Source: a virus
Taxonomy: Duplodnaviria; Caudoviricetes
Length of the DNA stretch: 64,000 nt
IMG/VR virus record: IMGVR_UViG_3300024262_000013
Direction: 5' to 3' (one strand)
Position numbers and translations under genes: made by a program. The notes beneath the pieces were generated by a model. It was not told where the DNA came from, searched no databases, and worked only from the letters and a program-made list of their open reading frames with translations. Positions within the stretch are counted from its first letter, which is position 1. Each line of letters starts with the position of its first letter. This document shows positions 3,426 to 62,459 of this stretch, one piece after another.

Positions 3426-3432
3426 TATTTAT
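3426..3432 (+). promoter_or_regulatory. TATTTAT putative late-promoter motif (portal)
   Basis: Lies 12 nt before the ATG at 3445; the same motif recurs before about 20 virion-associated genes. Confidence 0.6.
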
Positions 3433-3444
3433 GTAAAAAGAAGT

Positions 3445-5307
3445 ATGGCAGAAAATTATACTATATGGCAAAGACTTACTAAGGTGTTTGGTCCTGACTC
3501 AACGTTAGACCAACAAGCCCCGGTATTTCAGTTTGATAAAAAAGAACTTTTAAAGACTCCTGATAAGAAAGAGTATGAGAGAGAGAAACTTCAAGCCCAA
3601 CAAACTCTTTATCTTGGTCAACAATGGCAAAAAATTGAGAATAACTTATACACTCAAGCGGTATATTACGAACCAACTAGATTAGCTTCATTTTATGATT
3701 ATGAGAGTATGGAATATACTCCTGAAATATCTGCAGCCTTAGATATCTACGGTGAAGAATCAACAACCGTGAACGAAGATGGGCATATACTACAGATATA
3801 TTCTGAAAGTAAGAGGATTAAATCAATTCTTGGTGACTTATTTAACAATAGACTCGACATTAGTACTAACCTACCTATGTGGACAAGAAATACTTGTAAA
3901 TACGGCGATAACTTTGTTTACCTTAAGTTAGACCCTGAAAAGGGAGTTATGGGTGTACAACAACTACCTAACATTGAAATCACTCGTCAAGAACGAGGAA
4001 TGAAAATGAAACCAGAACGTAACAGTGTCGATAGTGAGAATGATGCTCTTAAATTTTTATGGCAAAATAAAGATATGGTACTGAATACTTGGGAAATGGC
4101 TCACTTTAGATTATTAGGTGATGACCGTAAATTACCTTATGGTACCTCTATGTTAGAAAAGGCCAGGAGAATATGGAAACAACTAATATTATCTGAAGAC
4201 GCTATGTTAGTTTACCGAACATCAAGGGCTCCCGAAAGAAGAGTCTTTAAAGTTTTTGTTGGTAATATGGATGACAAAGACGTTGAACCGTATGTACAAA
4301 GAGTGGCAAATAAATTTAAAAGAGACCAAGTAGTCGATTCTACAAATGGTAATGTTGATTTAAGGTATAATCAAATGGCGGTTGACCAAGATTATTTTAT
4401 ACCTGTTCGTGATGCTAACGCTCCGAATCCAATAGATACTTTACCAGGTGCACAAAATTTATCTGAAATCGCGGATATTGAGTATATTCAGAAAAAATTA
4501 TTAACCGCTCTTAGAGTACCTAAGGCATTCTTAGGGTTTGAAGAAGTAGTCGGTGACGGTAAAAATTTAGCATTACAAGATATTAGATTCGCTCGTACAA
4601 TCAATAGAATTCAAAAATCTATGATTCAAGAATTAAATAAGATAGCAATCATTCATTTATACTTATTAGGTTTTGAAGATGAATTAAATAACTTTACATT
4701 AGGTTTAACTAACCCATCAACACAAGCTGATTTACTTAAGGTGGAGCAATGGCAACAAAAAGTAGCTCTTTATCGTGACGCGGTATCTGACCCAGGAAAT
4801 GGGATTCAACCAGTATCTTCTTCATGGGCTAAGAAACATATTTTAGGTTTTTCAGATGAAGAAATTAAACTTGATTTACAACAACAAAGAATTGAAAAGG
4901 CGGTTGGAGCCGAATTAGAGAAAACTTCTGAAACAATTAGTAAGACAGGTATATTTGCAAATATCGATAAGTTATACGGCGACAAACCTGGTGAAGGTGG
5001 AGCACCTGAAGGTGAAGTAACTGAACCGTCAGACACAGGATTTGGTTCCGATGGAGGTGGTAGTGATTTTGGAGGTGACTTAGGTAGCGACTTAGGTAGC
5101 GACTTAGGTAGTGACTTAGGTGATACCGGTGGAGATACCGGTGGAGATACCGGTGGAGAGGTAACACCTGAAGGTATTAATGAAAAAGACTTAAATATGA
5201 TATTAGAAAATGATATGGTAACGGGTATTTCTGAAATAGATTTATCAAAAGGTAGAGTATCTTTAGGTAAAATCGAAGATGAACTAAGAACATTACTAGA
5301 TAGTTAA
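3445..5307 (+). CDS. gp20: portal protein (T4 gp20-like)
   Basis: SMLEKARRIWKQLILSEDAMLVYRTSRAPERRVFKVFVGNM and EDYF-like QDYFIPVR match the gp20 core; gene order is terL-portal. Confidence 0.95.
   Translation: MAENYTIWQRLTKVFGPDSTLDQQAPVFQFDKKELLKTPDKKEYEREKLQAQQTLYLGQQWQKIENNLYTQAVYYEPTRLASFYDYESMEYTPEISAALDIYGEESTTVNEDGHILQIYSESKRIKSILGDLFNNRLDISTNLPMWTRNTCKYGDNFVYLKLDPEKGVMGVQQLPNIEITRQERGMKMKPERNSVDSENDALKFLWQNKDMVLNTWEMAHFRLLGDDRKLPYGTSMLEKARRIWKQLILSEDAMLVYRTSRAPERRVFKVFVGNMDDKDVEPYVQRVANKFKRDQVVDSTNGNVDLRYNQMAVDQDYFIPVRDANAPNPIDTLPGAQNLSEIADIEYIQKKLLTALRVPKAFLGFEEVVGDGKNLALQDIRFARTINRIQKSMIQELNKIAIIHLYLLGFEDELNNFTLGLTNPSTQADLLKVEQWQQKVALYRDAVSDPGNGIQPVSSSWAKKHILGFSDEEIKLDLQQQRIEKAVGAELEKTSETISKTGIFANIDKLYGDKPGEGGAPEGEVTEPSDTGFGSDGGGSDFGGDLGSDLGSDLGSDLGDTGGDTGGDTGGEVTPEGINEKDLNMILENDMVTGISEIDLSKGRVSLGKIEDELRTLLDS
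5077..5157 (+). repeat. two adjacent 12-nt tandem repeats in the portal C-terminus
   Basis: GACTTAGGTAGY about 3.75 copies (5077-5121), then GATACCGGTGGA 3 copies (5122-5157), encoding (DLGS)n(DTGG)n. Confidence 0.9.
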
Positions 5308-5327
5308 TATTTATAATAAAAACAGTT

Positions 5328-6062
5328 ATGGATAAATTCGGACAAATAAAATCAAATATAGAATCTTTAATGACTAAGTCATATGGTAAAAATTCGTTTA
5401 AAACCAATATAAGGTCATTTAAAAGCCATATTATTAAAAACGAAAAACTTGCTGAAGCGTATTTTTTATATGATGAACTTTCTAAAAAGAAAGGTCTCTC
5501 AAAAGACATCGTAGATGATTATGTAAATGAATGTATTGAGAAAATAAAAGATATACTAACAACTGAATCCACTAAACTTAAAGAAGTTAATATGTGGGTT
5601 TCTGAAAGCTTAGAAAAAGAAACAATTAATCAATACTCGGATATTGATACTGTTGTTTATATTAATTCGGTAAGAAAACTTGAGGAAGTTTTAGAATGTA
5701 AAAATAACATAAAAAAGATATTAGGTGAGAATAAAGAAGTTTTAAACGTAACTGAATCGATTAACATTCCTTTAAGTTCTATGTTAAAAATTGCAACTAA
5801 CACTTTTAATCGTGAGTATGGTGACATTAGTGAAGAAGAAAAAAAAGAATTAAAAAATCTTTTATCATTGTCTAAAACTGAATTAACTGAAGAAATAACT
5901 ATTTCTAAAGGTGTTGTATTAAAAAAGTTAACTGAAAAAGTTAATGAATCGAACGATGAGGATTTAAATAATAGAGTTAATGAAACCATTAATAGGATTA
6001 ATGAGTCCGAAATATCTTTAACCTCTTTATATAAATTAAGACAATTAGAGCAAGGGTTATAA
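5328..6062 (+). CDS. hypothetical head-module protein (244 aa)
   Basis: ORF follows portal; TATTTATA at 5308; many [ILV]-x-E sites (VTES, LTEE, VNES, INES). Confidence 0.8.
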   Translation: MDKFGQIKSNIESLMTKSYGKNSFKTNIRSFKSHIIKNEKLAEAYFLYDELSKKKGLSKDIVDDYVNECIEKIKDILTTESTKLKEVNMWVSESLEKETINQYSDIDTVVYINSVRKLEEVLECKNNIKKILGENKEVLNVTESINIPLSSMLKIATNTFNREYGDISEEEKKELKNLLSLSKTELTEEITISKGVVLKKLTEKVNESNDEDLNNRVNETINRINESEISLTSLYKLRQLEQGL

Positions 6063-6087: not shown

Positions 6088-6120
6088 AAAGGGTTCAGTT
6101 TTCTGAATCCTTTATTTTTT
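6088..6120. terminator. bidirectional intrinsic terminator overlapping the bS21 stop codon
   Basis: Stem AAAGGGTTCAG / CTGAATCCTTT with a TTTT loop, an A-tract on the left and a T-tract on the right, between convergent genes. Confidence 0.7.
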
Positions 6121-6286
6121 GTATATAAATTGCTTTTTGTTTCTCTTTTCTTCTCTTAGTGGACTTTTTAGTGTACTCTTTTTGCTCACGAAGTCTATTT
6201 AACTGTTTAGTTTTATAAACTTTATTTTTCCACCTTTTAAGTGCTCTATCGATATTTTCTTTACTACCTATTTTAATTATAATCAT
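6095..6286 (-). CDS. rpsU: 30S ribosomal protein bS21 (phage-encoded)
   Basis: 63 aa basic protein with ENIDRALKRWKNK, LREQKEYTKKSTKRR and KAIY, the bS21 pattern of Flavobacteriia type. Confidence 0.92.
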   Translation of the reverse strand: MIIIKIGSKENIDRALKRWKNKVYKTKQLNRLREQKEYTKKSTKRRKEKQKAIYIQKIKDSEN

Positions 6287-6301: not shown

Positions 6302-6308
6302 ATAAATA
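6302..6308 (-). promoter_or_regulatory. TATTTAT putative late-promoter motif (bS21)
   Basis: ATAAATA on the + strand, 15 nt upstream of the bS21 ATG. Confidence 0.55.
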
Positions 6309-6326: not shown

Positions 6327-6358
6327 TTTGACTACCGACCTTTTTATGGTTATATTTT
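6327..6358 (+). promoter_or_regulatory. host-sigma-type promoter candidate
   Basis: TTTG-N20-TATATTTT, one mismatch to the Bacteroidota -33/-7 consensus TTTG...TAnnTTTG. Confidence 0.5.
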
Positions 6359-6394: not shown

Positions 6395-6832
6395 ATGAAA
6401 AAAGGAAAAACATCCCAGTTATCGGGATACAAAAACGCAAAGTGTAGTTATGGTACAGTAGACGCAAAAAAATTAAAATCGGTTTATATCCTAATACAGA
6501 GTTGGGTAGAACCAGTGGTTAATGTAGACAATTGGTCACGAACCACAGGAATGTTAGAAAGAAATATTAAACATCATTTATTAGAGGTAGTTGACCCACT
6601 AATATTTGAAAAACACAATATAGTTGATTTAGATTTAAGGAGTAGTGGTATACAATTAGGTAAAAGAAGTTTTATGAATTTGGAAGTAACTTTATTTGTA
6701 AAAGAAGAATTAGACTTTAAATCTATCATATTAAGAGATAGAGTAAAACAAATAGTAAATACACTTTATGGGTATCCATTAATGAAATCTAAACATTTCA
6801 TATTACATAAAACTAAAAAACAAACAGTTTAA
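6395..6832 (+). CDS. hypothetical protein (145 aa)
   Basis: Clean ORF divergent from bS21, behind a host-type promoter. Confidence 0.75.
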   Translation: MKKGKTSQLSGYKNAKCSYGTVDAKKLKSVYILIQSWVEPVVNVDNWSRTTGMLERNIKHHLLEVVDPLIFEKHNIVDLDLRSSGIQLGKRSFMNLEVTLFVKEELDFKSIILRDRVKQIVNTLYGYPLMKSKHFILHKTKKQTV

Positions 6833-6855
6833 ACTATTTATAGTAAAACTATTAA

Positions 6856-7242: not shown

Positions 7243-7270
7243 ACGTGACATATTTATAAAATAAAAAGAT

Positions 7271-7993
7271 ATGAAGATATTAGGACCAAATGATACGGGT
7301 AAAGGAATTTTAATTGAATGGGACGCTGGATTTATTAACCCAAACGATAGACGTAACGCCGATGTAATAAAAGAATCATATGGTCAATTAGACCATTCTA
7401 AACCTTTTGAGTTTTACGCAGTATTACAAAAATACGACACACCAAATAGAAACGGTAGAATATATCCTGAAAAGATATTAAGAAGAGAAGGTGAAAAATA
7501 CCAAGAAGCGATAAAGAAAGGGTTATCTATTTCAGAACTTAATCACCCTGAATCATCATTAATTGATTTAGACCGTGTATCGCATTTAATTACTGAAATG
7601 TGGTGGGAAGGTAATGTATTAATGGGTAAGATAAAGTTATTAACTTCTCCAGGGTTTCATCAGACAGGTGTAGTTTCATGTCCCGGTGACCAAGCTGCAA
7701 ATCTTATGAGACAAGGTGTGACAATGGGGGTTTCCTCTCGTGGTGTCGGTTCATTAGTGAAAAAAGGTGATAGGAACGAAGTACAGGAGGATTTTGAACT
7801 AATTTGTTTTGACTTAGTTTCATCTCCATCGACACCAGGAGCTTACTTATTCTTGAATCAAGATGATAAAATGAAGTATGATGAAAACATTGAAGAAGAA
7901 ACTAAATTAAGAAGTGCTGAAGGTGAACCTGAAAAAGGTTTAGAAAAATCACTTGACTTAATGAAGAAATTAACCGATTATTTAGGATATTAA
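7271..7993 (+). CDS. gp21: prohead maturation protease (T4 gp21-like)
   Basis: ELNHP, GVSSRGVGS and FDLVSSPSTPGA motifs; lies upstream of scaffold and capsid genes. Confidence 0.93.
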   Translation: MKILGPNDTGKGILIEWDAGFINPNDRRNADVIKESYGQLDHSKPFEFYAVLQKYDTPNRNGRIYPEKILRREGEKYQEAIKKGLSISELNHPESSLIDLDRVSHLITEMWWEGNVLMGKIKLLTSPGFHQTGVVSCPGDQAANLMRQGVTMGVSSRGVGSLVKKGDRNEVQEDFELICFDLVSSPSTPGAYLFLNQDDKMKYDENIEEETKLRSAEGEPEKGLEKSLDLMKKLTDYLGY

Positions 7994-8252: not shown

Positions 8253-8280
8253 AAATCGGGATAATACCCGATTTTTTTTT
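8253..8280 (+). terminator. intrinsic terminator
   Basis: Stem AAATCGGG / CCCGATTT with a 6-nt loop, followed by a long T-tract. Confidence 0.8.
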
Positions 8281-8367
8281 GCCTATTGTTTCCTAAATGG
8301 ATTTTTTTTTAATTTCGGCATATTTATAATAGAAACTATAAATAAACATTTTGCAAAAAAAACTATA

Positions 8368-9747
8368 ATGAAACAAAAAAAACAAAACTTAGTTGAAGAA
8401 GCGCTATTACAAATGGAGAATTTGAAAGAAGCCGTTACGGAGAATGCAAAAGGAATACTTGCTTCTACTATGAAGGAAGAAATCAGTGAATTAGTAAAAG
8501 AATCTCTAAATAATGAAGAGATTGAAGACGAAGTGTCTGTTGATGCAATGGAAGGTCAAGAAATTGAAAAAGGTGTAAAACACGAAACAAAAGAACAAGA
8601 CGAACTTGACATTGAAGACGACATGGAACTAGACGATGAAATGGAAATCGAAGACGAATCCGATGAGGATGAAGATGAGATTGAAATTGATTCTGATGAA
8701 ATGCTTATGATGGATTTACCAGGTGATGAGTTAGAAGTGGATGATGAAGAAGAAATTCTTTTACCGCTTGACTTAACAGGTGCATCTGACGAAGAAATCC
8801 TTAAGGTCTTTAAAGCTATGGGTGAAGAAGACGGAATCGTTGTTACAAAAGACGGTGACGAAATCACACTTAAAGATGATGAGGCTGATGTTGAATATCA
8901 AATTCAAATGGAGGAATTCGGAGGTAAGAAAGGTGACAATTCAAAATCACATGAGGACTACGAAGAATCTAACGAAGGAGACGAAGTAGTTTATGAAATT
9001 GAACTTGGTGAAGAAGACGATGAAGAGTACGACCACTATCACGGTGCGGAAGAAGACGACGCGGCACATATCGAAGACTTAGAAGACGATATGGAAGATG
9101 ACGCTGAGAAAACTGAAGCTAAGGAGAATTGGGGTTCTAAGAAACACGAATACAGACGTAAGGATGTAAACGGCGTTGAAAAGAAAGCTGGTGAAGGTAA
9201 AGGTGGACACTTTAAAGATTACGAAGGAGAGGCTACAGAAGGTATGACGAGAAGTCACGCTTCGGGACAAAAAGCTTCATCTGACAAATCTAAAGGTTTA
9301 TCAAGACCGGGAGCTATTCCTAATAGAGCAAGGTACAATGAATCTGCACTTGAGAAAGAAGTAAAACAATTAAGAGAAAAGAATGGTGAGTACCGTAAGG
9401 CACTTAACATCTTTAAAGAAAAACTTAATGAAGTTGCTGTTTTCAACTCAAATCTAGCATATGCAACTCGACTGTTTACTGAGCATTCGACAACAAAACA
9501 AGAAAAAATAAACATTTTAAGACGTTTTGACTCTGCGGAAACAATCAAAGAATCAAAAAGTCTTTATAAGACAGTAAGAGAAGATTTAGAATCGAAAGGA
9601 AATTCTTCAGTTGTAACTGAATCAGTTGCATCTAAAGTACAAAAATCACCATCTAAAGGTTCTGCTACTAATCTTATCGAAAGTAAAACTTATGAAAATC
9701 CTCAATTTATGAGAATGAAGGATTTAATGAGTAAACTTCAAAAATAA
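8368..9747 (+). CDS. prohead core scaffold protein (T4 gp22-like position)
   Basis: Very acidic, coiled-coil C-terminus, many [ILV]-x-E sites; lies between protease and capsid genes; TATTTATA at 8321. Confidence 0.8.
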   Translation: MKQKKQNLVEEALLQMENLKEAVTENAKGILASTMKEEISELVKESLNNEEIEDEVSVDAMEGQEIEKGVKHETKEQDELDIEDDMELDDEMEIEDESDEDEDEIEIDSDEMLMMDLPGDELEVDDEEEILLPLDLTGASDEEILKVFKAMGEEDGIVVTKDGDEITLKDDEADVEYQIQMEEFGGKKGDNSKSHEDYEESNEGDEVVYEIELGEEDDEEYDHYHGAEEDDAAHIEDLEDDMEDDAEKTEAKENWGSKKHEYRRKDVNGVEKKAGEGKGGHFKDYEGEATEGMTRSHASGQKASSDKSKGLSRPGAIPNRARYNESALEKEVKQLREKNGEYRKALNIFKEKLNEVAVFNSNLAYATRLFTEHSTTKQEKINILRRFDSAETIKESKSLYKTVREDLESKGNSSVVTESVASKVQKSPSKGSATNLIESKTYENPQFMRMKDLMSKLQK

Positions 9748-9772
9748 AATTAATTAAAAAACAAATACTAAA

Positions 9773-11539: not shown

Positions 11540-11560
11540 TATATCTTAATTATAATATTA

Positions 11561-11589
11561 AAGGGGACCTATACGGGTCCCCTTTTTTT
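11561..11589 (+). terminator. intrinsic terminator after the capsid gene
   Basis: Stem AAGGGGACC / GGTCCCCTT followed by a T-tract. Confidence 0.85.
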
Positions 11590-12235: not shown

Positions 12236-12314
12236 TTTGTTTTTTATTTAAGGTAATAAGTTTATTTCTTGTTATATTTATTAATAGATAACAGAAGTAT
12301 AGTAATAATCAAGT

Positions 12315-15351: not shown

Positions 15352-15390
15352 GGTTTTAAATGTTTAAGTTACAAATATAGTATTAATTTT

Positions 15391-17534: not shown

Positions 17535-17556
17535 AAACTCTTTTTAATATAAATAC

Positions 17557-21677: not shown

Positions 21678-21706
21678 AATATTATAAATATTTATAGAAT
21701 AACTTT

Positions 21707-22567
21707 TTACAGATTATGTAGCTTATTTGTTAGCTCGTAATATAATTTTTTGTACTTCCTCATTGATGTCCTTATCTCTTTAGTGGACATATTGGTCATA
21801 TCACGTAAAGATAATAGTATAATATTCTTGTTAAATTTGTTATTATCCGTACCAATAAAAATGTTACCATAGTTCTCAAATAACTCTATTAGTGCGTACC
21901 CTAACTTTAATTCGTTATTATTTAAATCGTTAGATTCTATATAATTCTCTAATTCTTTAATAAAGTGTCTAATTACATCTGTCGCATCTACTTTCTCATG
22001 TTCGAGATAATAAATCATATCAGGTCTACTTTCTAATTTAGTCGTGATATCTTCATAAGAAATTTTTCGATTCTGTTCTTTTTGGTCTTTTATAATCATA
22101 CCCATTAGGTAATTTTTACAAATAGTACCAAAATAAGAATACGCCTTTTTATTCCTTTCAGGTTTAAATTTTTCTACTTTAGTTATTAAAAATGAATGTG
22201 TATCATGATTAATTTCACGAAACTCCATACCTTTTCTATAAAGTTTATATCTACGAATGATTGATTCTATCATTTTATCTAAAGGTGTCCTTAGAAATTC
22301 ATTATATATTTCATTTTTTTCGGTATATGTAGAAGCCGTTAGAAATAATCTAACCGCTCTTTCTTCTCTCTCAGCAAAATAATTAGTGGGGCTTGGTTTT
22401 CTCCCCCTCTTTTTTGGTTCACTAGATTCGTCAGTCTCAGTACTACCCGACACTACCTCAGTAGTTACAGTGCTACCGGATACTAATTCAGTAGTTATGG
22501 TATTACCTGACACTACAATCTTAACTGATTCATCATTAGAAGTAGTGTTTTTGGGTTTTAATATCAT
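21707..22567 (-). CDS. phage sigma factor, T4 gp55-like (late transcription)
   Basis: FKPERNKKAYSYFGTICKNYL resembles sigma region 2 of gp55-type proteins; preceded by an NYF...helix region. Confidence 0.7.
   Translation of the reverse strand: MILKPKNTTSNDESVKIVVSGNTITTELVSGSTVTTEVVSGSTETDESSEPKKRGRKPSPTNYFAEREERAVRLFLTASTYTEKNEIYNEFLRTPLDKMIESIIRRYKLYRKGMEFREINHDTHSFLITKVEKFKPERNKKAYSYFGTICKNYLMGMIIKDQKEQNRKISYEDITTKLESRPDMIYYLEHEKVDATDVIRHFIKELENYIESNDLNNNELKLGYALIELFENYGNIFIGTDNNKFNKNIILLSLRDMTNMSTKEIRTSMRKYKKLYYELTNKLHNL
22441..22520 (-). repeat. 30-nt degenerate tandem repeat (about 2.7 copies)
   Basis: Encodes VVSGNTITTE-LVSGSTVTTE-VVSGST in the sigma factor N-terminus. Confidence 0.8.
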
Positions 22568-23373: not shown

Positions 23374-23378
23374 AATTA

Positions 23379-24443: not shown

Positions 24444-24446
24444 AAT

Positions 24447-26100: not shown

Positions 26101-26120
26101 TATTATATATAATTTAAATT

Positions 26121-27993: not shown

Positions 27994-27994
27994 A

Positions 27995-28810: not shown

Positions 28811-28832
28811 AATTATAATTTTAATTCTAACC

Positions 28833-41386: not shown

Positions 41387-41412
41387 ATAAATACCGCGAA
41401 CAAAGTATTTAT
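41387..41412. promoter_or_regulatory. back-to-back pair of TATTTAT motifs driving divergent genes
   Basis: ATAAATA at 41387-41393 (for the - gene) and TATTTAT at 41406-41412 (for the + gene), each 15 nt from its ATG. Confidence 0.65.
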
Positions 41413-48658: not shown

Positions 48659-48699
48659 ATGTATGTTTTCTTTATAAATATTAAGAAAACTACATTTCT

Positions 48700-50262: not shown

Positions 50263-50299
50263 TTTCTTTTAATTATAAATAATGGTCAATTAGAAATCT

Positions 50300-52063: not shown

Positions 52064-52109
52064 ATTGAGATATTTATAATATAACAATAAACTATGTATT
52101 TATCAATAT

Positions 52110-54222: not shown

Positions 54223-54372
54223 TTACTCACCATAAATATCCTTTTCTTCTTTACACTTTTCTTCAATTAATTTCTCAATGAATTTATATAACGTAAAACC
54301 GTGTTTTTTACAGTAGAGTTTTAATGTCTCATGAGACTCAGGTGAAATTTTTATGTTTTTTATTTTACTCAT
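54223..54372 (-). CDS. 49-aa ribbon-helix-helix-like protein (not in the ORF track)
   Basis: Manual translation gives MSKIKNIKISPESHETLKLYCKKHGFTLYKFIEKLIEEKCKEEKDIYGE; TATTTATA at 54423-54430 on the - strand. Confidence 0.7.
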   Translation of the reverse strand: MSKIKNIKISPESHETLKLYCKKHGFTLYKFIEKLIEEKCKEEKDIYGE

Positions 54373-54507
54373 AGGTGTTTTTTTAAAAAGGTAGAAAAAA
54401 GGTAGAAGTTTTTCATACTCTTTATAAATATAGTCTTAACATAATAGTTTTTTGGTATTTTTCATAATATTTATCAATAAATAAAAACTTAAGAAAAAAA
54501 TTACACA

Positions 54508-57500
54508 ATGGCAACATCTAACAAAGTATTTGTATCTCCGGGTGTTTATACATCAGAAAGAGATTTAAGTTTTGTAGCACAAAGTGTGGGAGTCACAACT
54601 CTTGGGTTAGTAGGTGAAACAATTTCGGGACCAGCGTTCGAGCCGATTTTCATAACTAATTACGATGAGTTCCAATCCTATTTTGGTGGTACAAATCCAA
54701 CTAAATTCGTAAATACTCAGATACCTAAGTACGAGGCAGCTTACATAGCGAAATCATATCTACAACAATCAAATCAATTGTTTGTTACTAGAGTACTTGG
54801 TTTATCAGGGTACGACGCGGGGCCTTCATGGTCAATAACAACTATCGGTAACTTAGATAGCTCAGGTACAACGGCAACAGGCGTTTTAGGACCTTTCTCT
54901 ATTTCATTTACAGGAGTTTCAGGAACATCCACAAGTGTTGGAGTAAATTACTCAGCATTACCTATCAGTATTACGGATGTGATAACTAATCCATATACAA
55001 CATATACGGGTGGAGAGTCCTCTATTATTCGTGATATGGATAGATATTTATATTCGGAGATTGTAAATAACACGACTTCAGGAGAAACATCTTATTTTTG
55101 GGGAGCGGTAAGTGCCTCCACATTTAATAGTACTACAGGCGATACGGTTAATCAAACAGGGGCTCTTGGGTCAGTTAATACTAATGTATTTAATGTAGAA
55201 GATATTCTTTTTGAATCTTGTGATTTAACCGCATCGGTTAATGACCCATGGTATTACGCATTATTTACTGAAACTGCTAACGTGTATAACGGTACAGGTT
55301 TTGGTATGGGTGTAACATCAATGACGAATGTAGGTCTTAACTTCCAAGGTACGGCTAAAGTTTATGTAACAAGCTATTCGGGTACACCATATAGCGGTTA
55401 CCACGATGTGGTAGTTGCAACTTTACGTTCAAGAGGTATAGATAACTATACAAATGATGACGGACCAGTTTATGAGGTATCAGGGGTAACTGACGTTCTT
55501 TTAGATTGTACAGGAGCGTATTCTGGTATATCCACTAATCCTTTTTCGACTTTTGCAGTCTCTGCAACAACTACCGATGGAGATAACTTTATATTCCAAA
55601 CATCATTTAACTTATCTAGTTCAAACTACCTTTCAAAGGTATTTGGTAAATCAAATTTTGCGAAACCGAAATCAGAGGTACCATTATTTGTTGAGGAAGA
55701 ATATTATAACTTATTAAATACGGGGTATCGTTTAGGTAAAGTCCGTGGATTAAGTTGTGACCTAGTTGATTTACCAAGTGCTAGACAAGATTTAGCAACC
55801 AATACAAGTATCGGATGGTACTTAGAAAGATACCAAACACCTGAAACACCTTATTTCGTTTCTGAATTAAGAGGTAATCAAGTTTACAATATGTTTAAGG
55901 TATTAACCATATCTGATGGTAACACCGCAAATAGAGAGATAAAAGTCTCTATTATGAACATTTCATTTAATAATGGGACATTCGATGTAGTTGTACGTGA
56001 TTTCTTCGATACCGATGCTAACCCAGTAGTTTTAGAGAAATTTACTAACTGTACTATGGATATGAATCAAAATAGTTTTGTAGCTAAAAGAATTGGTACA
56101 TCTAATGGGGAGTTTGAGTTAAGGTCAAGATTTATAATGTTAGAGATGAATGAGGACGCACCTTATGACTCACTACCTTGTGGTTTCCGTGGATACCAAA
56201 CTAGACAATACTCAGGAGTTAATTCACCATTCTTAGAATATAAAACAAAATACGACACACCAGGTGAAGTTATTTGGAACCCACCATTTGGTGCGGCGAC
56301 AGGTACTGACAATGAAACGAGAAGTTCAGGTGATAGAGTAAGAAGAACTTTCTTAGGTGTTTCAAACACCGTAGGGATTGATTCAGATTTCTTACAGTAT
56401 AAAGGAAAACAAAACCCTACAAATTTAGGGACCGCAACTGATTCACAACCATGGGGTTACCTTACTAAAGGTTACCATATGGATTCAGGAGCAACGGTTA
56501 TTATGATTTCTTCTAATTATATTACGTCAGGTGAAACGGCTTTTGAAGTTGGGGACGCGAGTTTCGATTCAGAACCAACTGAAGGTAGTCCATATTTTAG
56601 ATTAAATGCACGTAAGTTCACAGTAGTTCCATCAGGAGGTTTCGATGGATGGGATATTTATAGACAATATAGAACTAACGGTGACAGATATCAATTAGGA
56701 GCAGCAGGATTTAGAAAAGGGGCGGCACCATCGATAAGTTATCCAACCGCAACAGGATGGGGAGCGTTTAAACAAATTGTAGGACCAGACCAATTAACTT
56801 GGGCTAACACAGATTATTACGCTTACTTATGGGGTCAATATACATTTAATAATCCTGAATCAGTTAACATTAATGTGTTTACTACACCAGGTATTGATTA
56901 TGTAAATAACTCAAACTTAGTTGAGTCAGCAATTGATATGATTGAACAGGATAGAGCAGATTCAATTTATCTCTGTACTACACCTGACTATCAAATGTTT
57001 ACACCTTCATTAGGTAGTTTTGATACTGACTTTATTTACCCTGAAGAAGCGGTAGATAATTTAGTAGACACAGGAATAGACTCTAACTACACAGCAACTT
57101 ATTATCCATGGATACTTACGAGAGACACGGTTAATAATACACAAATATATCTTCCACCAACAGGTGAGGTTGCTAGGAACTTAGCATTAACTGATAATAT
57201 AGCTTTCCCATGGTTCGCATCTGCGGGTTACACAAGAGGTTTAGTTAACTCAGTTAAAGCACGTAAGAAGTTAACACAAGAAGATAGAGATGTACTATAC
57301 CAAGGTAGATTAAACCCAATTGCAACCTTCTCCGATGTTGGTACTGTAATATGGGGTAACAAAACTTTACAAGTTAAAGAATCTGCACTTGATAGAATAA
57401 ACGTTAGAAGATTACTACTACAAGCACGTAAATTAATTTCGGCTGTGGCGGTAAGATTATTGTTCGAACAAAATGACGAACAAGTAAGACAAGAATTCTT

Positions 57501-57702
57501 AGACTCAGTTAACCCTATCTTAGATAGTATTAGGAGAGACAGAGGTTTAATTGACTTTAGAGTTACAGTTTCAGGTACACCTGAAGATTTAGACTCTAAC
57601 ACGTTAACAGGTAAAATTTACTTGAAACCAACAAGAGCACTTGAATTTATTGATATTGAATTTTTGATTACTCCTACAGGAGCATCTTTTGAAGATATTT
57701 AA
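54508..57702 (+). CDS. gp18: contractile tail sheath protein (T4 gp18-like, 1064 aa)
   Basis: N-terminal VSPGVYTSERDLS; C-terminal YYPW, PWFASAGYTRG, LYQGRLNPI, WGNKTL and RINVRRL motifs. Confidence 0.96.
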   Translation: MATSNKVFVSPGVYTSERDLSFVAQSVGVTTLGLVGETISGPAFEPIFITNYDEFQSYFGGTNPTKFVNTQIPKYEAAYIAKSYLQQSNQLFVTRVLGLSGYDAGPSWSITTIGNLDSSGTTATGVLGPFSISFTGVSGTSTSVGVNYSALPISITDVITNPYTTYTGGESSIIRDMDRYLYSEIVNNTTSGETSYFWGAVSASTFNSTTGDTVNQTGALGSVNTNVFNVEDILFESCDLTASVNDPWYYALFTETANVYNGTGFGMGVTSMTNVGLNFQGTAKVYVTSYSGTPYSGYHDVVVATLRSRGIDNYTNDDGPVYEVSGVTDVLLDCTGAYSGISTNPFSTFAVSATTTDGDNFIFQTSFNLSSSNYLSKVFGKSNFAKPKSEVPLFVEEEYYNLLNTGYRLGKVRGLSCDLVDLPSARQDLATNTSIGWYLERYQTPETPYFVSELRGNQVYNMFKVLTISDGNTANREIKVSIMNISFNNGTFDVVVRDFFDTDANPVVLEKFTNCTMDMNQNSFVAKRIGTSNGEFELRSRFIMLEMNEDAPYDSLPCGFRGYQTRQYSGVNSPFLEYKTKYDTPGEVIWNPPFGAATGTDNETRSSGDRVRRTFLGVSNTVGIDSDFLQYKGKQNPTNLGTATDSQPWGYLTKGYHMDSGATVIMISSNYITSGETAFEVGDASFDSEPTEGSPYFRLNARKFTVVPSGGFDGWDIYRQYRTNGDRYQLGAAGFRKGAAPSISYPTATGWGAFKQIVGPDQLTWANTDYYAYLWGQYTFNNPESVNINVFTTPGIDYVNNSNLVESAIDMIEQDRADSIYLCTTPDYQMFTPSLGSFDTDFIYPEEAVDNLVDTGIDSNYTATYYPWILTRDTVNNTQIYLPPTGEVARNLALTDNIAFPWFASAGYTRGLVNSVKARKKLTQEDRDVLYQGRLNPIATFSDVGTVIWGNKTLQVKESALDRINVRRLLLQARKLISAVAVRLLFEQNDEQVRQEFLDSVNPILDSIRRDRGLIDFRVTVSGTPEDLDSNTLTGKIYLKPTRALEFIDIEFLITPTGASFEDI

Positions 57703-57724
57703 TAACTAACTATATTTATAATAA

Positions 57725-57748
57725 AGAGGGGAGTTAATTCTCCCTTCT
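57725..57748 (+). other. GC-rich hairpin between a late motif and a small ORF
   Basis: AGAGGGGAG / CTCCCTTCT (one G-U pair). It follows TATTTATA at 57713 and has no long T-tract, so it may be a terminator or a leader structure. Confidence 0.5.
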
Positions 57749-58779: not shown

Positions 58780-58901
58780 TAATTATTATTATTTTATTTG
58801 CTCTAGTAGATTACTGAAAAAAAAATAAAAGTAAATAGAAAAACTTTTAAACTGGATATTTATAATTAAATAAACTAAAAGAAATATAAAACCAAAATAC
58901 A

Positions 58902-59390
58902 ATGGCAGACTTATTAATGAAAATGCCCGTTCCTTATGAACCAAAAAGAAAGAATAGATTTATCTTATCTTTTCCATCTTCATTGGGGATTAATTCTTGG
59001 TATGTTGAGTCTACATCAAGACCTAACATCCAAATCGGGTCCACAGAAATTCCTTTTCTAAACACATCCACTTACGTGGCAGGTAGATTTACCTGGAACA
59101 CAATAAACGTTACTTTCCGTGACCCAATCGGTCCATCAGCCTCACAAGCTTTAATGGAGTGGGTTAGACTACACTCAGAGTCCGTTACAGGCCGTATGGG
59201 ATACGCAGCAGGTTATAAGAAAGATTTAGACTTAGAGATGTTAGACCCAACAGGGGTAGCAGTTGAGAAATGGATATTACAAGGGACATTCTTAACTGAC
59301 GTTAATTTCGACAGTTTAGGTTATAGTGACGATGCGTTAGCGACAATTACAGCAACATTACGTCCTGATAGATGTATTTTGGTGTACTAA
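58902..59390 (+). CDS. gp19: tail tube protein (T4 gp19-like)
   Basis: 162 aa; AGRFTWNTINVTFRD, LEMLDP and WILQGTFLTDVNF pattern; TATTTATA at 58857. Confidence 0.88.
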   Translation: MADLLMKMPVPYEPKRKNRFILSFPSSLGINSWYVESTSRPNIQIGSTEIPFLNTSTYVAGRFTWNTINVTFRDPIGPSASQALMEWVRLHSESVTGRMGYAAGYKKDLDLEMLDPTGVAVEKWILQGTFLTDVNFDSLGYSDDALATITATLRPDRCILVY

Positions 59391-59483: not shown

Positions 59484-60233
59484 ATGGACCAAGGAAAACA
59501 ATACGGAGAAATGAATATGGACTTACCACATGATGTGGTACCATTACCATCACAAGGTTTATTCTACACAAGTAAGAAAAAATCTCTTAAGGTGGGTTAT
59601 TTAACTGCTCAAGATGAAAATATATTATTATCAAACGCAGGGAATAACAATTTAGTAATGACATTACTGAAGAATAAAATTTATGAGCCGGATTTTAACG
59701 TAAATGAATTACTTGACGGAGATGCGGAAGCTATCTTAATCTTTTTAAGAAATACCGCTTTTGGCTCAGATTATAATTTTAAATTAAAAGACCCTAAGAC
59801 AGGGAAAGATTTTGAGACGACAATCGCTTTAGATGAATTAAATATTATAAAAGCTAAAATAACACCAAATGAAAAAGGGTTATTTGAATTTAACCTACCT
59901 AAATCGGGTGTTAATGTAAAATGTCGACTTTTAAATGTTCAGGACACTAATGAATTATCTGCGTTACCCGACTCATACCCTAATGGAGTAACTGTACCAA
60001 TTGTTACTAAAAGATTAGAAAAACACATTATGTCTATCGATGGTGATGAAAACAGAGAAAAAATATCAACCTTTATAAGTACGCTACCTATTATGGATTC
60101 AAAGTTTATTAGGAACACAATGTCAGATTGTGAACCTAAATTAGACCTTAATAGAACTACTACAGCCCCGTCAGGAGAAAAAGTGAATATGCGTATCACT
60201 TTTGGGGCGGAGTTTTTTCGTCCTTTCTTCTAG
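59484..60233 (+). CDS. baseplate hub/tail assembly chaperone (T4 gp26-like)
   Basis: VPLPSQG, YLTAQDENILL, LIFLRNTAFG and C-terminal EFF; lies between tube and tape measure. Confidence 0.75.
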   Translation: MDQGKQYGEMNMDLPHDVVPLPSQGLFYTSKKKSLKVGYLTAQDENILLSNAGNNNLVMTLLKNKIYEPDFNVNELLDGDAEAILIFLRNTAFGSDYNFKLKDPKTGKDFETTIALDELNIIKAKITPNEKGLFEFNLPKSGVNVKCRLLNVQDTNELSALPDSYPNGVTVPIVTKRLEKHIMSIDGDENREKISTFISTLPIMDSKFIRNTMSDCEPKLDLNRTTTAPSGEKVNMRITFGAEFFRPFF

Positions 60234-60408
60234 TTATAGAAAAGTTCTGCTCGATGAGTTCTACTATCTAAGTAAACATGTAAATATGTCTTACTCGGAC
60301 CTACTTATTATGCCGACATTCGAAAGAAAATTCTTTATTAATAAGTTGTCAACCGAATTCCAAGAAAAAAATGAACAAATAGAGAAACAAAGGCAAAAAT
60401 CTCGTTAA
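60202..60408 (+). CDS. T4 gp51-like short chaperone ORF; no good start, possibly reached by frameshift
   Basis: MSYSDLLIMPTFERKFFI resembles the gp51-type pattern; overlaps gp26 in the +1 frame across TTTTTTC. Confidence 0.65.
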   Translation: MGRSFFVLSSSYRKVLLDEFYYLSKHVNMSYSDLLIMPTFERKFFINKLSTEFQEKNEQIEKQRQKSR

Positions 60409-60433
60409 CTAATATTTATAATAAAAGAAAATT

Positions 60434-62362
60434 ATGTTTGAAGGTGATGGAATAGCTGGAGAGGTTAAATCGATAGAATCGAGTATTAAGTTAGCGGACA
60501 TCTCGCTTACAGCATTTGCGAGAAAATTAAAAGACAGTATCATCGATGTTGGTTCGTTAATTGAAAGGGCTGCTGCGATTCAAACTAAATCTGCCAATAC
60601 GGTTAGAGAAAGTTTAGGACAAACTAGAGCGGTAAGTAATGAGGTTCAAAAAGTTATGGCTGAGTCAGCTAAAAGTACTATGCAAATTGGTATTAGTGCT
60701 GAAAAAAATATTGAATTATTTGCCGCGATAAATAATTCAATGATGAGAAATACGTTTCTCACGGATTCACAAATAACAGGATTTCAAGCGTTAGGTATGA
60801 CCGCTAATATGACGGCAACCGAGTTAGCTACTATGGCTACCTCATTCGATACCTTAGGTTATACCACAGACCAAACACTTGCGATGATGGGAGAAATGAC
60901 CGACCAAGCGAGAGCTTATGGTTTAAACGTTTCCACATTTATGGGTGAGGTTAACAAGAATTTAAAGTTAATGGTCACATATAACTTTAAAGACGGTGTC
61001 GTAGGTCTTTCTAAAATGGTTGCCCAAGCACAAGCCTTAAGAATTGATATGGGTAAGACGGTTAGTTTTGCTGATGAACTAATGTCACCTGAAAAGGCAA
61101 TTGAAACCGCAGCTGGATTCCAAATGTTAGGGGGGTCAATTAGTAAATTAGGAGACCCATTCTCATTATTAAATATGGCTCAAACAGATATGGCGGGACT
61201 ACAAGATAGTCTTGTTGATATGGCAGCGGGGGCAGTTTCATTTAATAAGGAGTCAGGGGAGTTTGATATTCCTGTTACTGAGATGTACCGTCTTAGAGAA
61301 GCCGCAAAATTAGCTGGAATGTCATATCAAGAGTTTGCGGAGATGGGTATGAAAGCGGCTCAAAAGACTGAAAAGTTAAAAATATTAGATAATTTTAATA
61401 CTGTACCTGAAGAGCAAAAAGAACTAATCGCTAATATGGGTAAAATTGGGGCTAATGGTAATTTAGAGATAACTATGCCAGACGGTACGGTTAAAAAAAT
61501 TGGCGAAGGGTTTAATCAATTAATTGCTAGTGATTACACTCAATTAGAAAATATGTTAGATGTTAATAACATGTCAGAAATTGATGTCGCTAAGGAATCT
61601 ATGGGTTATCTTAACCAAATTGAGGCAGCTCAGAAGACTTTAATTAATTTAACAACGTTAAACTTAGTAAAAGGTGGTGGTTTTGATATTTTTGCTGAGA
61701 AAGCTACAGAGGCTCAAAAAATGCTAACTGAAGAGTTTTTAAAACGAGAAGATGAGATAAAGGTTCCTGACAATATTATTAGTGGGATTGGTCAAATACA
61801 AACACAATTAAGTATGGATAGGGAAACAGCTGCCGCGATTACTGAGGCGGTTGTTAATGGTATTAATGAATCCGCTAAAGCCACTAATGAGATTATTCAA
61901 CAACTAATTGATAAAGCTGATGGTGCCGCACTTTTATTATTAATGAAGCAAGGTTGGGGGGAAGTTATTTTAGCTATCGAAAACTTACCTGAGAGTATTT
62001 CGGGAATATTTAAAGAAACTGGAAGTAGAAAAAACCATAGTTTGAATGGTGAAACTCAGATAATCGACCACGAAACTGGGGGTAGAGGTAATCCATCAAT
62101 TAATCACGAAACCGGGGGTAGAGATAATCCATCTATATCTAGTCTTAATTACAGTACTGGTAGTATAGGTGAACCAACAACTATGATGGCGTCTAATTCT
62201 AATGTAAATGTGAGCGGTCAAGTTAACCTCACACTTGAAGGGATACCAACCAACTCAGTATTAGATAAAGATGCATTAGCTAACTTACTAATTAATAATC
62301 CAACCGCAATGGCTACGATTAATTCTCAAATAAATAATACGTTAGGAACTTATAACTCCTAA
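60434..62362 (+). CDS. tape-measure-like protein (642 aa)
   Basis: Ala/Met/Gln-rich helical composition; position after tube and chaperones; TATTTATA at 60413. Confidence 0.7.
   Translation: MFEGDGIAGEVKSIESSIKLADISLTAFARKLKDSIIDVGSLIERAAAIQTKSANTVRESLGQTRAVSNEVQKVMAESAKSTMQIGISAEKNIELFAAINNSMMRNTFLTDSQITGFQALGMTANMTATELATMATSFDTLGYTTDQTLAMMGEMTDQARAYGLNVSTFMGEVNKNLKLMVTYNFKDGVVGLSKMVAQAQALRIDMGKTVSFADELMSPEKAIETAAGFQMLGGSISKLGDPFSLLNMAQTDMAGLQDSLVDMAAGAVSFNKESGEFDIPVTEMYRLREAAKLAGMSYQEFAEMGMKAAQKTEKLKILDNFNTVPEEQKELIANMGKIGANGNLEITMPDGTVKKIGEGFNQLIASDYTQLENMLDVNNMSEIDVAKESMGYLNQIEAAQKTLINLTTLNLVKGGGFDIFAEKATEAQKMLTEEFLKREDEIKVPDNIISGIGQIQTQLSMDRETAAAITEAVVNGINESAKATNEIIQQLIDKADGAALLLLMKQGWGEVILAIENLPESISGIFKETGSRKNHSLNGETQIIDHETGGRGNPSINHETGGRDNPSISSLNYSTGSIGEPTTMMASNSNVNVSGQVNLTLEGIPTNSVLDKDALANLLINNPTAMATINSQINNTLGTYNS
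62069..62136 (+). repeat. 36-nt tandem duplication in the tape-measure C-terminus
   Basis: Encodes HETGGRGNPSIN / HETGGRDNPSI. Confidence 0.85.
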
Positions 62363-62459
62363 TCGTTATAAAATAATGTTGGTGGCTTGAGATAATTCTA
62401 CTCGTTTAGATTACGCAAAATTATGTTACCATCTATTTATCTAAAAAGAATATATATAG

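Follow-up and report, generated by a model that had tools for sequence, protein, structure and literature searches.

A start-proximal TATTTAT(A) box as a probable late-promoter element in a T4-related phage of Bacteroidota

Boxes and genes at the locus

The stretch of DNA that was analysed (hereafter the window) comprises 64,000 nt and is part of a T4-related myovirus of Bacteroidota of about 300 kb, which is one of the published 'bS21 phages'. Genes on both strands of the window are preceded by the 7-mer TATTTAT or the 8-mer TATTTAT(A), called the box in the following. An earlier note on this DNA had listed 20 copies (13 on the plus and 7 on the minus strand), and every one of them is an exact match to TATTTAT; a 21st copy that had been missed is located at 52071. 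In 18 of the 21 cases, the gene opens with the first ATG that follows the box, and the sense-strand consensus at the sites reads (A/C)TATTTAT(A/T).

The first box (3426..3432, plus) is located 12 nt before the ATG at 3445 of the gp20-type portal gene. The second one (5308..5315, plus) adjoins the portal stop codon, lies 13 nt before the ATG at 5328 of a gene for a 244-aa protein and is conserved in relatives. On the minus strand, the box at 6302..6308 precedes the gene of the ribosomal protein bS21 (6095-6286, minus) by 15 nt. Two further plus-strand boxes stand 14 nt before the ATG at 6856 (6835..6842; 128 aa) and 13 nt before the prohead protease gene (7251..7258; gene at 7271-7993). The protease unit is ended by an intrinsic terminator (8253..8274, plus), and just downstream of it the box at 8321..8328 (plus) heads the unit of a scaffold-like gene and the major capsid gene (8368-11539) with a 40-nt leader. 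A strong intrinsic terminator (11560..11585, plus) follows 3' of the capsid gene, where the depth of the RNA contigs drops; the two terminators and the box at 8321 frame a block of high RNA-contig depth.

Further downstream, the box at 12275..12281 (plus) lies 33 nt before the ATG at 12315 (758 aa) and the one at 17549..17555 (minus) 14 nt before the ATG at 17534 (487 aa). The box at 21684..21690 (minus) is located within a 14-nt palindrome (21683-21696), only 6 nt before the ATG at 21677 (124 aa), and belongs to a class that we call leaderless. The gene directly upstream of it (21707..22567, minus), which ends a minus-strand run of box-free genes, encodes a gp55-like sigma factor of 286 aa, which is the candidate for reading the box. 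Two boxes are arranged back to back, each 15 nt before its gene: 41387..41393 (minus; ATG at 41371, 250 aa) and 41406..41412 (plus; ATG at 41428, 697 aa). The true start of the former gene is probably 41371 and not the longest-ORF start at 41425. Two minus-strand boxes follow, 15 nt before 48658 (48674..48680; 370 aa, with a head-tail adaptor-like C-terminus) and 12 nt before 50262 (50275..50281; 520 aa, with Fe/Mn superoxide dismutase domains). The start codon at 52110 (171 aa) is preceded by two plus-strand boxes, the extra copy at 52071..52078 (32 nt) and one of the leaderless class at 52097..52103 (6 nt).

The spacer at 54223-54507 contains the box of the tail sheath gene (54468..54474, plus; 33 nt before the gene at 54508-57702) and another box (54424..54430, minus), which faces away from the sheath gene and has only a short ORF downstream. 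The box at 57713..57720 (plus) adjoins the sheath stop codon; a 50-aa ORF begins 59 nt downstream and the predicted transcription start coincides with the foot of a GC hairpin (57729-57744). The remaining plus-strand boxes are located 38 nt before the tail tube gene (58857..58864; gene at 58902-59390), 14 nt before 60434 (60413..60420; 642 aa) and 19 nt before 62460 (62434..62440; 1587 aa in the near-identical contig G001). A different promoter class is represented by a Bacteroidota sigma-A type -7 box (TATATTTG; 15352..15390, minus) upstream of the gene at 15136-15351.

The box therefore is found before the portal, protease, scaffold and capsid, sheath, tube and bS21 genes. Of the eight recognisable virion genes, five carry it, and it is absent from all 17 genes of the replication, nucleotide and sugar classes (p = 0.001, Fisher test); it is confined to late (virion) genes. 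The replication, sugar and sigma genes in the window lack a box of their own upstream, and a recheck bore out the earlier observation that polB, the SNF2 gene and the sugar genes have no sense copy before them. Boxes of their own are also missing from TerL and some tail genes, and the capsid gene, an internal cistron, has none either. RNA-seq of this phage group revealed that bS21 and the structural genes are co-expressed late (PMC9723584). In these data the genes did not form one operon; 'MCP and its upstream gene' were co-transcribed, and so were 'protease and its downstream gene' (PMC9723584). These published units match the pattern of box presence and absence in the window.

Enrichment and conservation

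Counted over the whole window, TATTTAT is not enriched (64 copies observed vs 59.6 +/- 6.5 in shuffled sequence), and 24 copies of the 8-mer TATTTATA compare with 18.8 in shuffles. About 24 of the 64 TATTTAT copies fall in non-coding DNA, which amounts to 2.2 kb or 3.4% of the window. Upstream of genes, expected counts were derived from a Markov-1 model trained on the upstream regions themselves. Sense copies were observed within 25 nt of the start in 12 of 69 genes vs 1.2 expected, a number that none of 1000 simulations reached, and within 60 nt in 17 of 69 genes vs 2.5 expected. The antisense word ATAAATA showed no enrichment upstream of the same 69 starts, neither within 25 nt (3 vs 4.7) nor within 60 nt (7 vs 6.5); the T4 box (TATAAATA/ATAAATA) is thus not enriched in sense orientation. 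The comparison with a composition-matched control that the earlier note had called for therefore yields an excess that is sense-only, start-proximal and about tenfold, and the rough chance of 0.03 per 60 nt given there agrees with the recomputed value of 0.037.

The box is also kept in relatives. It precedes 42 of 170 genes in G001, a near-identical contig of 162 kb. In 80 related loci, TATTTAT is the top sense 7-mer, located upstream of 316 of 816 genes (antisense word: 49). The box of the portal gene is retained in about 65 of the 80 relatives (68-98% aa identity), with diverged flanks and a spacing to the ATG that varies from 4 to 29 nt. Moreover, the cultured Flavobacterium phage immuto, whose capsid protein is only 42% identical, carries TATTTATA before 24 of its 221 genes, and several of these copies are located directly 3' of terminators. 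The look at relatives that had been proposed along with the motif thus uncovered a box that persists despite diverged flanks. No published description of this late box was found.

In view of these data, there is next to no probability that the pattern is a functionless by-product of AT-rich intergenic composition: the genome has 31-35% GC and the whole-window count does not exceed that of shuffles, but neither would produce a tenfold sense-only enrichment over a model trained on upstream regions, the exact word in diverged relatives with changed flanks, or its rank as top upstream 7-mer in 80 loci.

Promoter architecture and start site

No -35 element was detected, and no column between -45 and -2 is informative beyond weak A/C preferences; TTG occurs in the -35 region of only 12 of 44 sites. 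The box alone would thus define the promoter, as in promoters of the T4 type. The distances from box to ATG are trimodal (4-6, 12-20 and 32-59 nt), with none at 7-11 nt. Positions 11-13, counted from the start of the box, are A in 31-35 of 44 sites, and in the class with 4-6 nt the A of the ATG falls exactly on these positions.

A single RNA 5' end was seen at the locus (8333..8335, plus; AAA in the genome). One metatranscriptome contig with a depth of 394 starts at 8333, which is position 12 of the site at 8321 and lies 5 nt after the 8-mer; this 5' end belongs to a contig of one assembled RNA run. Ahead of 8333 the contig has 17 A that are not templated by the genome. In scans of contig collections, whose contigs of the locus are derived from DNA only, this poly(A)-joined form was not found again.

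A gp55-like sigma factor as candidate reader

The 286-aa protein (21707-22567) had no match when it was scanned directly against Pfam and PHROG. However, phrog_234 matches its orthologues (E 2.5e-4 to 2e-3), and profile-profile comparison using hhalign revealed a match to the gp55 family (E 2.8e-5, probability 74%, 92 columns). Among PDB profiles, SigA region 2 (E 0.004) and gp55 (7d7c_F, E 0.17) were matched. An AlphaFold model of the protein (pLDDT 82.6) was aligned by VIA-align to T4 gp55 (7d7c_F) with a Z-score of 10.9 and an rmsd of 4.4 A over 116 of 137 residues; other sigma factors also reach Z-scores of 9-11. The contact residues L54, R57, F86 and Y97 of gp55 align with I103, R106, F134 and Y145, respectively, and Y143 stands opposite H95, the residue of the -9 pocket. 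Residues 190-286 of the model form a helical domain, which is included in the alignments to full-length or two-domain sigma factors (sigma-H, sigma-E, sigma-B and, to residue 613, sigma-70). The protein therefore does not share the gp55-family trait of having sigma-2 only, without sigma-4, and the sigma-4-like domain is present although no -35 element is seen.

The profile and fold comparisons thus point to a sigma region-2-like domain homologous to gp55. The placement in the sigma superfamily is secure; the assignment to the gp55 subfamily is less so and of moderate strength, because other sigma factors score equally well. Most likely, the protein is a very diverged, so far unannotated phage sigma factor and the candidate reader of the box. 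The gp55-like gene is located directly upstream of a late box in both the window and immuto.

The relatives differ in their further transcription genes. Immuto has this sigma factor (E 5e-35) and the box, and no Sigma70_r2 match at E <= 1. The near-complete relatives G006 (99% complete) and G007 carry an additional canonical sigma factor (271-276 aa), which is above the Pfam cut-off for Sigma70_r2 (E 6e-18). A phage RNA polymerase was not found in a 99%-complete relative. For a gp45-type clamp, PF02916 and PF09116 matched neither G001 nor the complete immuto genome, and PF09116 matched neither G006 nor G007; these models might miss a clamp that has diverged strongly. T4 gp33, used as a single query in a search that is insensitive since the protein is small and variable, gave one weak match in G006 (E 0.013) and none in G007, G001 or immuto. 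With no gp45-type clamp and no convincing gp33, the T4 activation mechanism should not simply be assumed.

Proposed mechanism and alternatives

We propose, with a probability of roughly 0.7, that TATTTAT(A) is a -10-like late-promoter element of the gp55 type, which is read by a phage-encoded sigma factor and altered at -10 and -9. In T4 numbering, the letters of the box are T-13 A-12 T-11 T-10 T-9 A-8 T-7 A-6, and it matches TATAAATA at six of eight positions, differing at -10 and -9. The earlier note had described the motif as the reverse complement of the T4 late promoter. As a string of letters this is correct; as a mechanism it does not hold, since a -10-type box has a direction and is read on the non-template strand, and the relation is a coincidence of letters. 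Its further suggestion, that the late promoters have a specificity of their own and that the 21707-22567 protein is a candidate for the factor, is supported by the sense-specific enrichment, the conservation, the restriction to virion genes, the placement behind terminators, the missing -35 element, the contig 5' end and the sigma-2 fold.

According to this proposal, early genes would use host sigma-A promoters (TTG, 17-21 nt, TAnnTTTG), as suggested by the enrichment of this arrangement. The box-free gene run would supply the phage sigma factor with its gp55-like region 2 and a C-terminal helical domain that overlays sigma-4. This factor would displace the host sigma factor on the host core RNA polymerase and presumably read the box without a -35 element. 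Transcription would begin 4-6 nt past the 8-mer, within the conserved A-tract, and the resulting mRNAs would be leaderless, with the ATG as start site, or have A-rich leaders of 7-15 nt or leaders of 27-54 nt. Many virion genes would own a box, often just past the stop codon or terminator that ends the gene before it.

An alternative, which we regard as rather unlikely, is that the box acts as a late or middle promoter but has another reader, either the second, canonical sigma-70-family protein of near-complete relatives or a phage-modified host sigma factor, and that the gp55-like protein serves a different class. Indeed, the Sigma70_r2 proteins of G006 and G007 occur beside the gp55-like one, the Rak2-like phage CBB likewise has two sigma-type proteins (PMC5259590), and the gp55 assignment is only moderately strong. 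However, immuto, with the box before 24-33 of its genes, manages with the gp55-like member, the box has no -35 partner, as is expected of a gp55-type reader, and in both phages a late box directly follows the gp55-like gene.

It is also conceivable, but very unlikely, that the motif works in the RNA, either as a translation enhancer for SD-less Bacteroidota ribosomes, perhaps together with the phage bS21, or as an endonuclease site that frees late cistrons. The copies are mostly close to start codons, the host phylum lacks Shine-Dalgarno pairing and the phage has its bS21 gene under the same box (PMC9723584), and processing could also yield an RNA 5' end near the motif. However, the motif stands 4 to 59 nt from the ATG, in three distance classes, and where it lies 4-6 nt before the ATG or behind a terminator, ribosomes cannot land on it in a transcript from upstream. 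Furthermore, immuto carries the motif without bS21, internal cistrons such as the capsid gene manage without the motif, and a 5' end downstream of it with non-templated A is unlike a cleavage product.

The promoter reading could be extended to the late mRNAs themselves, which might all be leaderless or oligo(A)-headed. Polymerase slippage, as hinted at by the 17 non-templated A of the single RNA 5' end seen here, may lengthen these ends to a 5' poly(A), and ribosomes with the phage's own, late-expressed bS21 may prefer such ends over Shine-Dalgarno sequences. We hold this extension to be speculative and unlikely. If true, promoter design would be coupled to translational takeover in Bacteroidota, which would be a bacterial parallel to poxvirus late mRNAs.

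Comparison with known systems

Late and intermediate promoters of poxviruses have a TAAAT initiator, and their transcripts receive 5' poly(A) leaders by polymerase slippage. A likeness exists in the speculative reading only, with initiation in a short A-tract at or near the ATG and 17 non-templated A on one contig; poxviruses belong to an unrelated realm and use an unrelated polymerase, and for this phage the evidence consists of one contig end. Housekeeping promoters of Bacteroidota, as known from promoter studies in Bacteroides and Flavobacterium, consist of -33 TTG and -7 TAnnTTTG. TTG, 17-21 nt and TAnnTTTG are present upstream of at least 10 other genes of the phage (10 observed vs 0.7 expected). 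Both kinds of promoter have AT-rich boxes with a T-tract in the -10 region, but the late box stands without a -33 partner, has AT(A) and not TTTG at its end, and serves a separate gene set. The late sites lack both -33 TTG and -7 TAnnTTTG and hence do not qualify as sigma-A promoters.

The late promoters of T4 (TATAAATA, -13 to -6), which depend on gp55, gp33 and the gp45 clamp, likewise have an 8-bp AT box as sole element. In both systems, many virion genes have their own copy, and a phage-encoded sigma-2-type factor is present that is, in the case described here, structurally close to gp55 (Z 10.9). T4 late transcription starts at position 13 (PMC7892883), and one contig end and the A-tract would fit a start about 5-6 nt after the box in this phage as well. 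Moreover, gp55 flips the bases at -12 and -8 into pockets (PMC7892883), and both bases are retained in the box of this phage. In contrast, the box has T at -10 and -9 where T4 has A, and the H95 of the -9 pocket aligns with a tyrosine. The factor comprises 286 aa vs 185 aa in gp55; its N-terminus is extended by a low-complexity stretch and its C-terminus forms a sigma-4-like domain. Neither a gp45-type clamp nor a convincing gp33 was found in complete relatives. Finally, the host belongs to the Bacteroidota, whose translation is not SD-led, and the leaders are very short or missing.

The Rak2-like jumbo phages CBB and GAP32 have the late motif ATAAATA together with a gp55-like sigma factor (PMC5259590). 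They also encode a second, sigma-70-like factor and have no homologues of gp33 or gp45 (PMC5259590). Like the phage described here, they belong to the jumbo myoviruses and have a gp23-type capsid; a tblastn search with the capsid protein from the window has their capsids among its matches. However, the sense-strand box of the Rak2-like phages keeps the T4 letters ATAAATA, whereas the sense word in this phage is TATTTAT.

Placement and anatomy of the late box

The word TATTTAT(A), here called the late box and numbered from its first T, had been proposed in an earlier note as a late promoter, and every coordinate listed for it proved to be an exact TATTTAT match. In the whole window, the 7-mer is not over-represented (64 copies versus 59.6 in shuffled sequences) and the 8-mer occurs 24 times versus 18.8; thus, a naive count would dismiss the box. 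The box stands out by its position: of the 64 copies, about 24 fall within the 2.2 kb of non-coding DNA. Start-proximal enrichment over a background model, which had been posed as a test of the proposal, was assessed for 69 genes using a first-order Markov model fitted to their own upstream regions, and it is present for sense TATTTAT only. The sense word lies within 25 nt of the start at 12 of the 69 genes (1.2 expected) and within 60 nt at 17 (2.5 expected); none of 1000 simulations reached 12 or 17, respectively. For the antisense word ATAAATA, no enrichment was found within 25 nt (3 of 69 genes; 4.7 expected) or within 60 nt (7 of 69; 6.5 expected). At 18 of 21 sites, the first ATG downstream of the box is the gene start; for the box at 41387 on the minus strand, the probable start is 41371 and not that of the longest ORF.

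The anatomy of the box was derived from an alignment of 44 sites, all from G001, a near-identical IMG/VR contig (161,923 bp; 97% identity with the whole window) that was used as a stand-in for the window's larger genome in wider counts. In these sites, A or C stands before the core and A (57%) or T after it, and positions 11-13 are A in 31-35 of the 44. Upstream of the core nothing is conserved to -45, so the box has no -35 element. The distances from the 7-mer to the ATG fall into three groups of 4-6 nt (9 sites), 12-20 nt (22 sites) and 32-59 nt (13 sites), with no site at 7-11 nt, and the same three groups are seen in 80 related loci. In the 4-6-nt group, the A of the ATG falls exactly on positions 11-13.

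Divergent genes can also be separated by a spacer of about 20-50 nt in which two late boxes stand back to back (G001 3786-5442; window 41387-41412), so that two late promoters can overlap on opposite strands. Moreover, a perfect 14-nt palindrome, TATAAATATTTATA at 21683-21696, gives each strand a late box. The one on the plus strand is directed into the sigma-like gene (21707-22567) in antisense orientation and has no A-run behind it; it could either drive a late antisense transcript against the sigma mRNA or be meaningless.

Gene content and the genes behind the box

Pfam and PHROG scans of the window identified a T4-type large terminase (1625-3397), a gp20-type portal (3445-5307), a prohead protease (7271-7993), a gp23-type major capsid protein (9773-11539), a tail sheath (54508-57702), a tail tube (58902-59390), a baseplate hub (59484-60233), a family B DNA polymerase (44409-47240) and an SNF2 helicase (50300-52087, minus strand). 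The gene for ribosomal protein bS21 (6095-6286, minus strand) lies inside the head module on the opposite strand and has its own late box. A dUTPase, an exonuclease, glycosyltransferases and a block of sugar-nucleotide enzymes are also encoded. The nearest cultured capsids, those of Microcystis phage Mel-JY01, the Flavobacterium phage vB_FspM_immuto (immuto) and Rhodothermus phage RM378, share only 35-45% identity, and neither megablast with positions 1-25000 nor tblastn with a 697-aa protein gave a match in the phage collection. A genome size of about 300 kb follows from CheckV estimates and from longer relatives. Since this size and the gene order terminase, portal, reverse-strand bS21, protease and capsid match those of the ~300-kb bS21 phages of Bacteroidota (Chen et al. 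2022, PMC9723584), the phage belongs to this group. Promoters, motifs and sigma factors are absent from that study.

The boxed genes encode the portal, post-portal, bS21, protease, scaffold-like, sheath and tube proteins, an adaptor-like protein, a superoxide-dismutase fusion and several large proteins of unknown function. The capsid gene, which follows the boxed scaffold-like gene by 25 nt, has no box of its own. As the earlier note had observed, the box is absent upstream of polB, SNF2 and the sugar enzymes, and none was found upstream of the exonuclease, dUTPase, PhoH, glycosyltransferase and sigma-like genes. Among the recognisable genes, 5 of 8 virion genes and 0 of 17 others carry the box (Fisher p = 0.001).

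The superoxide-dismutase fusion is a 520-aa protein (48700-50262, minus strand) with complete N- and C-terminal Fe/Mn superoxide dismutase domains, followed by a C-terminal extension of about 280 aa. In view of its late box and its virion-gene neighbours, it may be a virion-associated superoxide dismutase. The cargo block at 22567-34012, which is free of late boxes, encodes a GDP-mannose 4,6-dehydratase, an epimerase, a UDP-glucose dehydrogenase, a DegT aminotransferase, a GNAT acetyltransferase, a sulfotransferase-like protein, GT2 glycosyltransferases and PhoH.

Conservation in related phages

TATTTAT precedes the portal gene in about 65 of 80 IMG/VR loci with portal relatives (68-98% amino acid identity), where the flanks vary by clade and the ATG lies 4-29 nt away. 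It is the commonest sense upstream 7-mer in these loci (316 of 816 genes; 49 for the antisense word). In the relatives that lack a portal box, it is still found upstream of post-portal, protease and scaffold genes. An alternative late word in these relatives was rejected because TATTTAT remains the top word upstream of other late genes. In G001, the box precedes 42 of 170 genes. The complete genome of immuto has TATTTATA upstream of 24 of 221 genes, several copies lying directly behind intrinsic terminators, and TATAAATA upstream of 6. This phage lacks bS21, and the box is therefore not tied to bS21. Overall, the motif is judged to be real, functional and clade-wide.

Other promoter classes

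A second set of genes, separate from the boxed ones, has the housekeeping promoter of Bacteroidota (TTG, 17-21 nt, TAnnTTTG), which was found at 10 genes in G001 (0.7 expected). This set speaks for a host among the Bacteroidota and for a split into early and late promoters. E. coli-type TTGACA/TATAAT sites are not enriched in either of two counts (70 versus 93 and 80 versus 90 expected), and a search for a third promoter class in long-spacer genes with neither box gave no clear word, only variants of the host-type -7 box. The divergent neighbour of bS21 (6395-6832) has a host-type promoter, TTGACT-17-TATATT, at 6328-6356. Furthermore, the divergent spacer at 28811-28919 contains TTG-19-TACATTTAG, which resembles the early promoters of immuto (TATATTTAGGTA). 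In the latter genome, about 18 small early-region genes at ~60-76 kb (L081/L097-L098) share a promoter whose conserved sequence is long: GTTGC, a gap of ~17-19 nt and TATATTTAGGTATCAATAATTAAAAC. This early-region promoter is of the host-type -33/-7 form with a phage-specific extension and is clearly distinct from the late box of the same genome.

RNA data on the proposed late promoter

The RNA data, assembled contigs of four marine metatranscriptome runs, are of little use for depth, for strand and for most ends. Upstream of the scaffold gene, the contigs have a depth of near zero to low; in three of the four runs, the depth rises in the bin 8344-8677, and it drops behind the capsid gene. One contig of run X5, with a depth of 394, starts at 8333, which is position 12 and lies 5 nt past the 8-mer at 8321-8328. 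An intrinsic terminator (8253-8274) is located just upstream of this box and a strong one (11560-11585) just after the capsid gene. Together, these elements make up one unit of terminator, box, apparent start, two genes and terminator. Independent raw-read mapping of lake samples revealed that the region is not one operon, the reported pairs being the capsid gene with its upstream gene and the protease gene with its downstream gene (Chen et al. 2022, PMC9723584). The boxes at 7251 and 8321, with none upstream of 8018 and 9773, match this pattern exactly. The late box also explains the published expression pattern of bS21.

The first 17 letters of the X5 contig are non-templated A, the genome reading AAA at 8333-8335, and nearly all late boxes are followed by an A-run of 3-6 nt at the predicted start. 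The 17 A may reflect slippage on the A-tract, that is, reiterative transcription yielding 5' oligo(A) leaders, which is only a lead, taken from one contig of one run. Neither 3' polyadenylation nor oligo(dT) priming on either strand can account for them. At least 8 A joined to the scaffold leader were found in none of the metagenome_contigs or viral_contigs, in which only four contigs, all DNA, hold the locus. Contigs encoding the tube protein were long DNA contigs only, among the matches listed. In the region 57713-57745, the box directly after the sheath stop codon has a GC hairpin behind it (stem 57729-57744). As the hairpin begins where the start is predicted, the transcript would have a stem-loop at its 5' end; the only ORF behind it, of 50 aa, lies 59 nt downstream.

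A gp55-like sigma factor as candidate reader

The candidate reader is the 286-aa protein encoded at 21707-22567 (minus strand), which the earlier note had put forward in connection with a distinct late-promoter specificity. Its gene is the last in a same-strand run from 28810 down to 21707, all without late box, and the first late box on the minus strand follows directly behind it. Direct Pfam and PHROG scans assigned the protein to no family, and phrog_12791 had no match in relatives; its orthologues give weak matches to phrog_234, the T4 gp55 family. The protein's own family is very large (at least 8000 clusters at the 90% identity level, 1135 at the 50% level), has neither a Pfam domain nor an informative name, and is listed as 'hypothetical' in public records. 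A narrow alignment of close homologues proved too shallow (hhalign E 0.011; PDB matches were noise) and was replaced by a diverse one for profile comparisons. The latter aligned with the gp55 family over 92 columns (hhalign E 2.8e-5, probability 74%), and hmmsearch of PDB sequences placed SigA region 2 first (E 0.004) and gp55 (7d7c_F) at E 0.17.

The AlphaFold model (mean pLDDT 82.6) gave only weak E-values in plain Foldseek owing to domain orientation, which was resolved with VIA-align: the alignment to gp55 has Z 10.9 and rmsd 4.4 A over 116 of 137 residues. This score is tied with those of sigma-H, sigma-70, sigma-B and sigma-S (Z 9-11), whose sigma-4 parts cover the C-terminal domain (residues 190-286). 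The protein is therefore predicted to be a two-domain, minimal sigma factor with a gp55-like region 2. In the hhalign register, L54/I103, R57/R106, F86/F134 and Y97/Y145 (T4/candidate) are identical or similar pairs. In T4, Y97 stacks on A-12, and L54, R57, F86 and Y97 are needed for box recognition. H95, which lines the -9 pocket in T4, aligns with the nearly invariant Y143, and T99 with G147. In this moderately confident alignment, the pairing would agree with a box that keeps A-12 and A-8 and is changed at -9 and -10.

The main rival reader is a second, canonical sigma factor. The near-complete relatives G006 and G007 each encode a sigma-70-family protein (271-276 aa) with a score above the Pfam Sigma70_r2 cut-off (E 6e-18; G006:C1:68134-68343 and G007:C1:246879-247088, both on the minus strand), outside the window and G001. 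However, the complete genome of immuto has the box and, at 78150-78872, a member of the gp55-like family (gp118, YP_010114565.1; E 5e-35) that is annotated as 'hypothetical', and it has no Sigma70_r2 match. The claim of a distinct late-promoter specificity with the 21707-22567 protein as candidate reader is backed by the sense enrichment, the conservation, the virion genes and the sigma fold; the second sigma factor could be the reader instead. The box is most probably the promoter of the late genes, and the joint reading, a late promoter read by the window's gp55-like sigma factor, is given a probability of about 0.7.

In G006, which is 99% complete, neither the multisubunit RNA polymerase family PF00623 nor a gp45 clamp was matched. 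The T7-type RNA polymerase family had no match there either, a weak test as the control genomes gave none. With no phage RNA polymerase found, the host core polymerase is presumably used. T4 gp33 as query gave one weak, unreplicated match only, and clamp-coupled activation as in T4 is not supported.

Significance and comparison with known late boxes

A full-text literature search for TATTTATA or TATTTAT as a phage promoter yielded no description of the box. Carriers of the sigma family are phages of Flavobacteriia and relatives that abound in marine and fresh waters; among them are the ~300-kb bS21 phages, which have no described promoter or regulator. With the box and a likely reader, sequence alone allows the prediction of late genes and transcription units for thousands of uncultured phages. 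Moreover, immuto, growing on Flavobacterium strain LMO8, is a cultured member of the wider clade and makes these proposals bench-testable.

In T4 and its relatives, the late box is TATAAATA; read in the same direction and register, the box of the window differs from it at -10 and -9. The earlier description of the late box as the reverse complement of TATAAATA is literally true, but it arises by chance, the AT word being near-palindromic, and is mechanistically irrelevant. The T4 box extends from -13 to -6, with the bases at -12, -9 and -8 singled out and the start at position 13 (PMC7892883). With the X5 contig starting at position 12, the geometry would be equal within one base. The Rak2-like jumbo phages CBB and GAP32 have the box ATAAATA and a gp55-like factor with no gp33 or gp45 (PMC5259590), and phage rV5 has a looser T4-like word. 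The box described here and its likely reader offer a natural gp55 specificity variant (-10/-9, His95 to Tyr) as a model for minimal sigma factors reading single-stranded -10 DNA.
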